From an uncultured archaeon (GTDB taxonomy: Archaea > Asgardarchaeota > Lokiarchaeia > Sigyniarchaeales > SOKP01): 14,537 bases of DNA. The position numbers and the translations under genes were made by a program. Where the stretch lies: NCBI GenBank assembly GCA_964632315.1, contig CAZWEM010000073.1, positions 1 to 14,537 of the forward strand, given 5' to 3'. Of the stretch, positions 10,448 to 12,841 are shown piece after piece. The notes under the pieces are model-generated. The model was given only the letters and a program-made list of their open reading frames with translations. It ran no database searches and was not told the DNA's origin. Each line of letters begins with the position of its first letter. The first letter of the stretch is position 1.

Positions 10448-11797
10448 TTATTTTTTCTCCCATTCAAAATCAAGCTGTATGAATTTTCGTGAGTAGAGGT
10501 AAGCACCGATAAGAATTAGAGAACATATTGGACCCCATATAACATAACCTAATGAAAACATTGAAGTTCCAACAGTAATTTTAGGCAATTCTAAGATAGC
10601 TCCCATAATCAATAATCCAACAGATTGAAAGAGGTTTAAAATTATACTTGGAAAGCCAGTATAAATTCCTGCTTTTAATTCGCCAGTTTTTTTTTCGTCA
10701 TCTTCGGCTATATCTGCTATAAAAATAGCAGGGAGTAAATACCAACCAGCTAAACATCCTCCTATTCCAAGGACAAAAATTAATCCAAATATAAATGAAG
10801 ATACCATTGGAATTAAGCCTATTAAAGAGAATGGAAGAAAAATTATTGCTACAAGAAAAATATATAAAACGCTTTGTTTTTTCCCTAATTTATGTACTAA
10901 TTTTCTCCAGATATAGAGAAATGTTAATATCCCTATAAGAAATACAGCTGCCACTATTATGTAAGTTGTCTGACTAAAAACTAATACCACCTGTATGTAT
11001 TGGAGAAGTAAAGCTCCAACCATTATCCATGCAATGCTTGCAATACCCATCATGCCATTTACTAATAAATAATTCTTATTTTTCAAAATTATCGTTAAAT
11101 TTTGAAATAGATTTGAATCTATTTTAAAATGCGGTTCTGTAGGCATTAGAAAAGTAATCAAATAAAAGAGTACTACCGGTATGATTCCGAAGATCATAAC
11201 CGATAGGGAGTATTCAAAAGGAATGACATTAGGATTAGTTTGAATTTTAGTGATAATTCCGGTTAAAATTATCAATGAAAATACTGACATTACACCTGAT
11301 CCTAACATGCCAATTGTATTTTGGTATTGCGATGCTCTAGGACGTTCATCTGTAGAAAACTGTTCTACCATCCATGAACCATATGGAGATGTAACTCCAT
11401 AGCTAATGTTAAAAATTTGATACAAGATTAATAACCAAAGAAAAACGGCATTTTTATCGCTGATATCAATCATTAAACCCGGCAATAATAAAAAAAAGAA
11501 GGACGCTCCAAGAATAGGACTTAAAATAATTAAATAAGGTTTTCTTCTCCCCCAACGAGTATATTTAGCATCACTTATCCAACCAAAGAAGAATTGAGAG
11601 GCCGCAATAGTAAGTTTTCCCATAGCTAACGCAAACCCGACTAAAAAAGCTGATACTTGAAAAGCTTGAATGTAAAGAGAAGCTAAAGCAAAATCTGCGA
11701 ATCCGATAAGAATAGATGTTCCAAACTTAGGTACTCCAAAAAGGAAAAATTTGCTTCTTGGACTTTTACTCCATGCTACATTATCTACTTCAGTCAT
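10448..11797 (-). CDS. MFS transporter, glycoside-pentoside-hexuronide (MelB/MFS_2) family
   Basis: About 12 TM helices. GWISD..TRWGRRKPY, ERPRAS, KLGKK and 'ADIAEDDE..TG...GIY.G' motifs. Confidence 0.92.
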   Translation of the reverse strand: MTEVDNVAWSKSPRSKFFLFGVPKFGTSILIGFADFALASLYIQAFQVSAFLVGFALAMGKLTIAASQFFFGWISDAKYTRWGRRKPYLIILSPILGASFFFLLLPGLMIDISDKNAVFLWLLILYQIFNISYGVTSPYGSWMVEQFSTDERPRASQYQNTIGMLGSGVMSVFSLIILTGIITKIQTNPNVIPFEYSLSVMIFGIIPVVLFYLITFLMPTEPHFKIDSNLFQNLTIILKNKNYLLVNGMMGIASIAWIMVGALLLQYIQVVLVFSQTTYIIVAAVFLIGILTFLYIWRKLVHKLGKKQSVLYIFLVAIIFLPFSLIGLIPMVSSFIFGLIFVLGIGGCLAGWYLLPAIFIADIAEDDEKKTGELKAGIYTGFPSIILNLFQSVGLLIMGAILELPKITVGTSMFSLGYVIWGPICSLILIGAYLYSRKFIQLDFEWEKK

Positions 11798-12134
11798 AAT
11801 TATTTTTACCTTTATTTAAGATTCCTTAAAAATAAATTTACATAAATCGAATAATATTTGATTTTAAGATTTTTAAATTTTCATTTTTTTCTCTTGATAA
11901 CTTGATAGTTAGCAAATAATCAAATCTAAATTAATAACCATAATTCTCGCTTAAAATTCTCTCTCTCTTAAACAAGACTCTAAGATAAGGACAATGACTA
12001 AGGATGAAGTAAGTAGTAAAACCTCTAGAGCCCTCTTCACAAGAGATTAGGAGTAAAATTTATAACATAACAAGTTTTTATTTATTTATCGTTTAATGTA
12101 AAATCTTGACCCTTGCTTTGGAGGGGTACCCGAG

Positions 12135-12164
12135 AACACGAGTCTCTACGACTCTGAACGGGAG
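12135..12164 (+). other. tRNA intron 1 (30 nt, position 15/16), relaxed BHB
   Basis: Central helix CCCG/CGGG with cuts AG|A and AG|T; internal hairpin GAGTC-TCTAC-GACTC. Flanking helices are imperfect, and the register could slip up to 3 nt because GAG is repeated. Confidence 0.8.
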
Positions 12165-12173
12165 TCTGGTCAA

Positions 12174-12202
12174 TTATTTTGACATGGTGTAAAATAGGCC
12201 TT
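12174..12202 (+). other. tRNA intron 2a (29 nt, position 21/22), BHB
   Basis: Central helix GGTC/GGCC, bulges AA|T and TT|T, inner helix TATTTT/AAAATA, outer pairing TCT/GGG. Confidence 0.72.
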
Positions 12203-12235
12203 TGGGATTCTTGAGAATGGGTCAAGACCGATCAT
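12203..12235 (+). other. tRNA intron 2b (33 nt, position 21/22), BHB formed after 2a is removed
   Basis: After 2a excision: central helix GGTC/GATC, bulges AA|T and AT|A, inner helices GG/CC plus TCTTGA/TCAAGA, outer pairing TCT/GGG. Confidence 0.72.
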
Positions 12236-12302
12236 AGGGGCTGGACTTAAGATCCAGTGGTAAAGGCCTTCGAGGGTTCGAATCCCTCCCCCTCCACATC
12301 CC

Positions 12303-12315
12303 TTATTTTTTTGTT
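12303..12315 (+). terminator. Oligo(dT) archaeal terminator-like tract after the tRNA
   Basis: TTATTTTTTTGTT within 20 nt of the discriminator base. Confidence 0.5.
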
Positions 12316-12463: not shown

Positions 12464-12841
12464 TTGCCTGTTGGTATACTTGTAATACGTTGGGACAACG
12501 AGATCGGTCCGATTAATGAGGGATTTTATCCAGAAAATCTTAAGATTACGAATAACTTGTTAACACAAGTCTACTCTTCACATAGATATCAATCTCTTAA
12601 ACCAGGATTTGCGTCAATCTCTCTAAAAAATAACAAGGTGGTAAGTTTCTTTAGTGGTGTCGGAGAGGATCACATCAGTGTAGAAAACTTCGTTGTTGCT
12701 TTACTTTTACGGCGAGACGAGAAACCAGGGAAGTATAGAGAAATTTTAAAAACAATTGCGGCAGAGATATTAGATAAAATTAATGATGGGAAGTTCAAGA
12801 AAGTATTACCAGATCTATATAAGGATTTAGCTAAAATATAA
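12464..12841 (+). CDS. Stand-alone longin/uDENN-like domain protein (eukaryotic-signature type)
   Basis: 125 aa. The N-terminal beta-hairpin GILVIRWDNEIGP...YP resembles the 'FD...GP.....P' start of DENN/NPR2-type longins, followed by a helix, three strands and two helices. TTG start with GAGG upstream. Confidence 0.7.
   Translation: MPVGILVIRWDNEIGPINEGFYPENLKITNNLLTQVYSSHRYQSLKPGFASISLKNNKVVSFFSGVGEDHISVENFVVALLLRRDEKPGKYREILKTIAAEILDKINDGKFKKVLPDLYKDLAKI

Follow-up and report, generated by a model that had tools for sequence, protein, structure and literature searches.

Nested introns in precursor tRNAs have been described for Thermoproteales. As that work (Sugahara et al. 2007, RNA 13:671; Tocchini-Valentini et al. 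2009, PNAS 106:20246) is summarised in two reviews (PMC3978253; PMC3728597), the last bulge-helix-bulge (BHB) motif forms only after another intron has been removed. Other archaea are already known to have nested BHB introns that are spliced in order, and the mechanism is not new. In Aeropyrum pernix pre-tRNA-Thr2, there is experimental proof for a single D-loop BHB intron whose removal calls for an endonuclease of broad specificity bearing the Crenarchaea-specific loop (CSL) (PMC3241643). This loop confers broad specificity, D-loop introns included, and CSL-bearing alpha/beta endonucleases also cleave bulge-helix-loop substrates (PMC3241643). An alpha2-beta2 endonuclease type has been reported for Asgard archaea (PMC5829648). 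Multi-intron tRNAs are also found in Cyanidioschyzon merolae, with BHB free energies of about -4.4 to -4.8 kcal/mol (PMC3728597).

For Asgard archaea, intron-rich tRNAs, multiple non-canonical introns and D-arm inserts missed by annotators have been published (2024, PMC11291895; bioRxiv 10.64898/2026.10.13.758758), and a sizeable share of the D-arm inserts has no canonical BHB when taken as one piece (bioRxiv 10.64898/2026.10.13.758758). Both studies centre on Atabeyarchaeia, Freyarchaeia and Jordiarchaeia; the words nested, stacked and ordered are absent from the text of the bioRxiv study.

The gene described here lies in a stretch of 14,537 nucleotides (nt) from an uncultured archaeon (the window). 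We consider it likely that it is a functional tRNA-Leu(UAA) gene with three BHB-type introns in the D-arm, two of which (termed 2a and 2b herein) are removed one after the other at a single site. As in Thermoproteales in the reviews' account, one tRNA would carry several BHB introns at non-canonical positions, to be removed in repeated rounds of two cuts and one ligation, and the host has an alpha2-beta2 endonuclease with the CSL. Unlike that system as the reviews summarise it, the host lineage is Promethearchaeota (Asgard), the arrangement is kept in 17 genomes of 5 genera, and the introns abut, with one 5' splice phosphodiester and the same exon GGUC in common. In contrast to the single intron of A. 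pernix pre-tRNA-Thr2, three units are predicted here, and whereas the BHBs of C. merolae fold independently and are not nested (PMC3728597), 2a and 2b are nested. Unlike the one-piece inserts of bioRxiv 10.64898/2026.10.13.758758, the long, BHB-less D-arm insert of this gene can be read as two BHB units. What looks like one long insert with no BHB can be a pair of introns, and the two-intron solution bears on the published Asgard intron censuses, in which each insert was scored as a single unit.

The tRNA-Leu(UAA) gene and its predicted spliced product

The features of the locus are listed in Table 1. The exons have a G+C content of 59%, compared to 33% for the window. Joined, the three exons give an RNA of 85 nt that ARAGORN calls as tRNA-Leu(taa), a class II cloverleaf with four complete stems and a long variable arm. 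The features of a class II tRNA-Leu and of the UAA isoacceptor are present, namely, a 3-bp D-stem, G18 and G19, a long variable arm and A73. The anticodon TAA (UAA) is located at 12248-12250 in an intact anticodon arm, the 7-nt acceptor strand at 12120-12126 has its complement at 12289-12295, the discriminator A is nucleotide 12296, and the CCA end is not encoded. Removal of the 30-nt insert and of the 62-nt insert (12174-12235) restores the canonical cloverleaf, and since the spliced exons give a tRNA-Leu(taa) called by ARAGORN, both inserts and the 9-nt micro-exon between them are taken to be real. A preliminary description of this DNA had proposed a tRNA-Leu(UAA) gene with three D-arm interruptions and a 9-nt micro-exon, the usual archaeal Leu D-loop in the product and an Asgard-type tRNA. 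The identity of the gene, the segments and the D-loop, with G18 and G19 in the cloverleaf, agree with the ARAGORN result, and the host is an Asgard archaeon, since its proteins are matched most closely by those of MAGs that carry the label Promethearchaeota or Promethearchaeia.

Table 1. Features of the tRNA-Leu(UAA) locus, in window positions; the two candidate signals were read from the sequence.
Feature	Position	Strand	Description
G+C-rich island			Lies within the 666 nt that separate an MFS-transporter gene (10448-11797, minus) from a small ORF (12464-12841)
Candidate TATA-like element	12059-12065	+	TTTATAA, 55-61 nt upstream of the tRNA 5' end
Exon 1	12120-12134	+	Acceptor 5' strand GGAGGGG, U8 A9, D-stem 5' CCC, G13 A14 G15 (ARAGORN cloverleaf of the product)
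Intron 1	12135-12164	+	30 nt, about position 15/16; relaxed BHB
Exon 2	12165-12173	+	9-nt micro-exon TCTGGTCAA; D-loop with G18 G19
Intron 2a	12174-12202	+	29 nt; strict BHB with flanking helices
Intron 2b	12203-12235	+	33 nt, about position 21/22; BHB complete only when 12173 abuts 12203
Exon 3	12236-12296	+	A22, D-stem 3' GGG, anticodon arm, long variable arm, T-arm, acceptor 3' strand
Candidate archaeal terminator	12306-12312	+	Run of seven T, 10 nt past the gene

A GTAAAA(A)TTTAWA block (window 12050-12069) is conserved upstream of the tRNA in many relatives, about 100 nt upstream in the orthologs of the genus. It is probably a BRE/TATA promoter, in which case the leaders would be roughly 30 to 80 nt long; the T run downstream of the gene is a likely archaeal terminator.

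On the unspliced gene in the window, neither ARAGORN nor Rfam at its gathering cut-offs called anything. The Rfam tRNA model matched only 12215-12296, with 25 bits against a cut-off of 29 bits, and at E-value thresholds Rfam returned partial or spurious matches only. The earlier expectation that standard scanners may miss the gene thus holds for two of them, ARAGORN and the Rfam tRNA model. Since standard finders miss the gene, genomes like that of the host look as if they had no tRNA-Leu(UAA). In the host genome, which is rated 99.5% complete, the Rfam tRNA model scored above its cut-off at only 20 places, and a scan for T-arm plus acceptor yielded 24 loci, of which 15 exceed 90 nt and tRNA-Leu(UAA) is the longest (176 nt). 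Many tRNA genes of the host are probably hidden by introns.

Splice motifs and the proposed order of intron removal

We define a BHB here as a central helix of 4 bp with two 3-nt bulges on opposite strands and cuts after the second nucleotide of each bulge. Every possible intron was scored for its central helix, its bulges and cuts, and the uninterrupted pairs that adjoin the bulges on their inner and outer sides. Intron 1 is a relaxed motif and not a strict BHB, since a 4x2 internal loop lies between its central and inner helices. Only the central helix is exact (D-stem strand CCCG at 12129-12132 with intronic CGGG at 12159-12162); the inner helix beyond the loop consists of 2 bp and 5 bp (12140-12144:12150-12154), and the cuts fall after AG on both sides. 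GAG is found at both ends of the intron, and its borders can therefore slide by up to 3 nt with no change in the product.

Read as one intron, the 62-nt insert has a complete GGUC:GAUC central helix (4/4) and no inner-helix pairs beside the bulge. A split at 12202/12203 gives two units. For 2a, the central helix is 12168-12171:12197-12200 (GGUC:GGCC, 4/4), the bulges are 12172-12174 (AA|U) and 12201-12203 (UU|U), with 3 nt each, the inner helix has 7 contiguous pairs (12175-12181:12190-12196), and the outer helix has 3 (12165-12167:12204-12206). Moving the 2a border one base to the right (12175-12203) leaves the product the same. Intron 2a is the only candidate in the precursor that combines a 4/4 central helix with at least 3 inner and at least 3 outer pairs, and among 20,000 dinucleotide shuffles of the insert, only 0.085% contained an equally good subintron at the fixed 5' site. 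In the unspliced RNA, an intron starting at 12203 has a central helix of just 3/4 (GGCC with GAUC). Once 2a is taken out, the helix 12168-12171:12230-12233 is complete (GGUC:GAUC, 4/4), the bulges are AA|U and AU|A, two adjacent inner pairs (12204-12205:12228-12229) are followed by a 6-bp helix (12209-12214:12222-12227), and the outer helix has 3 pairs (12165-12167:12237-12239). The second BHB is thus incomplete in the primary transcript and complete without 2a, and the same is found in 16 of 16 composite orthologs. Both 2a and 2b use GGUC of exon 2 (12168-12171) as the exon strand of their central helix. These results match the preliminary description, according to which the 62 nt have no inner helix as one piece and split into two BHB units at 12202/12203, the units use the same exon GGUC, with GGCC and GAUC as partners, and are both cut after AA, and 2b gains its full BHB only when 2a has been excised.

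The pathway that we propose starts from an old 33-nt intron 2b that is preceded by the 29-nt 2a, placed exactly on the 5' splice phosphodiester of 2b. Intron 1, in which D-stem CCCG would pair with intronic CGGG, could be removed independently of 2a and 2b. In the first round at the shared site, 2a would offer GGCC to exon GGUC, the alpha2-beta2 endonuclease would cut after A12173 and U12202, and RtcB would join the ends after release of 2a, creating the exon/2b junction as it is found in relatives. In the second round, GGUC would pair with GAUC, and cuts after A12173 and U12235 followed by ligation would leave a normal D-loop. Intron 2a would have to go before 2b, because it lies inside the 5' bulge of the 2b motif and both need the same GGUC. 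The earlier claim that ordered splicing is needed follows from this geometry, but a strict order is not forced, since alpha/beta endonucleases also cut relaxed bulge-helix-loop motifs and could remove the 62 nt in one step. In that alternative, which we regard as unlikely, the 62 nt are a single intron within which 2a is merely a structured insertion; GGUC:GAUC, the 3' bulge AU|A and the outer helix are recognised, and the 5' cut is made in a multibranch loop (a relaxed hBH-loop). GGUC:GAUC (4/4) and a 3-bp outer helix are indeed already available in the primary transcript, cleavage of bulge-helix-loop substrates by CSL-bearing alpha/beta endonucleases has been described (PMC3241643), and forcing the helix costs just 3.4 kcal/mol above the conformer with the 2a BHB.

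For the whole precursor, the conformer with the 2a BHB has -61.8 kcal/mol and is 4.3 kcal/mol worse than the MFE structure (-66.1 kcal/mol); it is better than the one-step (62-nt) conformer by the 3.4 kcal/mol given above. In the local 48 nt, the 2a BHB has a computed energy of -4.7 kcal/mol, close to the BHB energies of C. merolae (PMC3728597), compared to -7.7 kcal/mol for the MFE structure; the folding of these 48 nt is no better than that of shuffles (z = -0.15). MFE folding of the precursor, of the intermediates and of the local 48 nt did not display the 2a BHB, with other pairings ahead by 3 to 4 kcal/mol. On BHB formation and sequential splicing, these modelled folding energies are not decisive.

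Public metagenome contigs were also scanned for mature, intron-free, intermediate or 2a-only forms, and none was found; the scan returned only 2b-type variants of 16 to 30 nt and unrelated intron-free tRNA-Leu genes.

The D-loop inserts of related genomes and their origin

Orthologs were gathered from the genus, family and order of the host, which gave 88 distinct loci (87 from the family and one from another family of the order) with 59 distinct inserts. All 88 loci have an insert at the D-loop site of 2a and 2b, none being intron-free there, and all keep [TC][CA]TGGTCAA in the micro-exon region. Most loci contain a single 2b-type unit only, of 16 to 38 nt (16 nt in one genus and 27 to 38 nt in most). 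Inserts of 47 to 52 nt occur in two genera, and inserts of 62 to 66 nt, of which 16 are distinct, occur in 17 genomes of 5 genera (including the host, G016 and G057). Intron 2b is the ortholog of the single 16- to 38-nt intron of most relatives. The preliminary description had suggested looking across relatives for loci with only 2a or only 2b; orthologs with 2b alone or with 2a and 2b were found, and no 2a-only ortholog was present among the 88 loci. This one-site family series (16, 27 to 38, 47 to 52 and 62 to 66 nt) is a natural data set for the growth, stacking and loss of BHB introns.

The 16-nt minimal intron (e.g., ATTGGGTCAAGACCAA) was observed in loci L101 and L102 (genomes G078 and G079), where it forms a BHB with a GGUC:GACC central helix.

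Read as one intron, all 16 composites of 62 to 66 nt have 0 to 1 adjacent inner pairs. In each of the 16, GGCC or GGCU (GGCY) stands exactly 2 nt before the split point, and what remains after the split is the single 2b-type intron of the relatives. The central helix of 2a with exon GGUC is formed at 64 of 64 pair positions (4 pairs in 16 composites), compared to 13 to 36 when the partner is slid by 1 to 3 nt. Outside AGGCY, the sequence of 2a varies strongly; its second inner pair, for example, can be A-U, U-A, G-C or U-G. With the rest of 2a so variable, an invariant in-register GGCY is hard to explain unless it pairs with exon GGUC. One-step removal of the 62 nt offers no reason why GGCY should be invariant and in register, exactly 2 nt ahead of the 2a/2b border, in every one of the 16 otherwise divergent composites, and leaves unexplained why the remainder is always the single intron of the relatives. 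In its favour, most of the 47- to 52-nt inserts of the two other genera fold as one strict BHB, with TTGACC:GGTCAA as inner helix.

In the two-intron reading, A-U pairs are frequent in the inner helix of 2a, which in 6 of 16 composites is offset or shows fewer than 2 adjacent pairs, and slid controls of this helix score nearly as high (45 versus 29 to 42 of 64); in the host lineage, the inner helix of 2b beside the bulge has just 2 bp. When the 16 composites were aligned with MAFFT and folded with RNAalifold, the consensus was weak (-3.2 kcal/mol) and unrelated, and the 2a helix was not recovered. MAFFT sets GGCY one column out of register in three sequences, and pairs were therefore counted by anchoring on the intron borders.

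The 3' part of 2b, GGGTCAAGACCGAT (window 12219-12232), hardly varies in about 13 genera and is thus better conserved than D-loop positions 16-17. Within it lies a near-copy of the D-loop GGTCAA. Formation of the BHB accounts for GACC and GAUY, whereas the conservation of GGGTCAAGACCGAT goes beyond what the BHB requires.

We regard it as extremely improbable that the exons have to be chosen differently, with GGGTCAA in 2b (12219-12225) as the true D-loop and TCTGGTCAA as intronic. The presence of a near-copy of the D-loop in the intron would fit such a choice, as would unrelated intron-free tRNA-Leu genes that read CCCGAG-TGGTCAA-AGGGG. However, a 10-nt 'intron' GACCGATCAT that lacks a BHB would be required, the relatives with 16-nt inserts would require introns of 11 nt and 6 nt, and the variation at positions 16-17 of TCTGGTCAA is of the kind expected in a D-loop; this candidate D-loop was rejected.

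In addition to the ordered removal of 2a and 2b, the preliminary description had proposed that introns were gained repeatedly at one site. The 2a-plus-2b composite is shared across genera and, as far as the sequences indicate, is old. The host 2a has a 14-nt block, TTGACAT(G/A)GTGTAA, in common with genome G086 of another genus (13 of 14 identical), and two species of the host genus differ in the top of the 2a hairpin. Because at least 5 genera share the composite, and in view of the block shared with G086, the composite may just as well be old and have been lost precisely many times as have been gained several times, and repeated gain keeps its place as one of two readings that fit equally well. 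Single-gene proxies for relatedness are uninformative: an accessory protein from the window is patchy and discordant, and RtcB is 74 to 80% identical across nearly the whole family.

Two candidate origins were rejected. Pairwise scores of 2a against 2b revealed weak similarity (z of -1.0 to 2.7 compared to shuffles), which is unconvincing for a tandem duplication with 2a as a paralog of 2b. As for transposition of introns inside the genome, a blastn-short search of the complete assembly with introns 1, 2a and 2b gave no more than chance matches, none of them longer than 17 nt.

A further idea, which we put forward as speculation and think quite unlikely to be correct, is that existing splice sites are hotspots for arriving BHB introns, 2a sitting exactly on the phosphodiester that is cut for 2b. 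RtcB might religate a cleaved pre-tRNA with a foreign excised intron between the halves, and the product might then be copied back to DNA; alternatively, 2a might stem from a tandem duplication of the resident intron. If general, such stacking could explain part of the long D-arm inserts that were not fitted to a BHB in the 2026 Asgard census and would give a concrete answer to how introns arrive, a question left open by bioRxiv 10.64898/2026.10.13.758758.

Other intron positions of the gene vary among close relatives, too. Exon 1 is identical in G016 and G057, and a homolog of intron 1 is present in G016 and absent from G057. Intron 1 is found in 7 species of the genus, and at its site, 5 other species of the genus and 2 species from another one have introns of unrelated sequence. 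Presence of introns also differs at the T-loop, anticodon-loop and variable-arm positions. A T-loop intron of the same tRNA-Leu(UAA) gene was seen in many species. Locus L022 (G016:C149) contains four units (intron 1, 2a, 2b and a T-loop intron), and L040 (G020:C1, around 87900-88100) contains 2b, an anticodon-loop intron and a variable-arm intron. A different 62-nt composite is present in L114 (G123:C16:73496-74142), which consists of the 30-nt unit of its sister (L113, G115) and an extra 32 nt on the 3' side; no strict BHB was found for these 32 nt.

Need for the gene and processing enzymes

UUA is the commonest Leu codon in the confident ORFs of the window (90 of 227). A BLAST search of the host assembly with the mature sequence turned up no second host copy, and the locus is apparently the only UUA-reading tRNA-Leu gene of the host. 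As the gene thus seems to be the sole decoder of the commonest Leu codon, the cell would have to splice its transcript correctly three times, with part of the order probably fixed.

An intron-free tRNA-Leu(UAA) was found by ARAGORN on contig C78 of the assembly (G000:C78:10642-10725, minus; L170). This archaeal contig of 12.5 kb carries archaellum genes and an argS that is a duplicate, the other argS being located on a host-like contig. Its G+C content is 43%, compared to 33% for the genome, none of the 41 other genomes of the genus has its tRNA, and the host assembly is rated 8.6% contaminated; for these reasons, C78 is probably foreign, a contamination of the bin. The intron-free gene, together with the missing scanner calls, might suggest that the interrupted gene is a decaying pseudogene with inserts that are junk and never removed. 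We consider this very improbable, since every stem formed by the exons is complete, the 88 related loci keep both the exons and the splice motifs, UUA is the top Leu codon, and the C78 copy has the marks of foreign origin given above.

The enzymes for removing BHB introns are encoded by the host, on contigs with host-like G+C content. Two PF01974 endonuclease paralogs are present, an alpha subunit on contig C28 with catalytic residues and the CSL and a beta subunit on contig C8 that lacks the catalytic His, as beta subunits do, along with an RtcB ligase (568 bits). The pair agrees with the alpha2-beta2 type described for Asgard archaea (PMC5829648). The alpha subunit is closest to the catalytic subunit of A. 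pernix (E = 8e-34) and keeps K and R of the CSL (NKPR), the equivalents of K44 and R46. The broad-specificity endonuclease expected earlier is therefore predicted from its sequence to be the alpha/beta pair found here.

In six relatives, matches to RtcB start only at query residue 85-96 (G016:C2, G001:C295, G081:C222, G088:C3, G090:C13 and G009:C397), and their RtcB genes may be interrupted or mis-started near that point.
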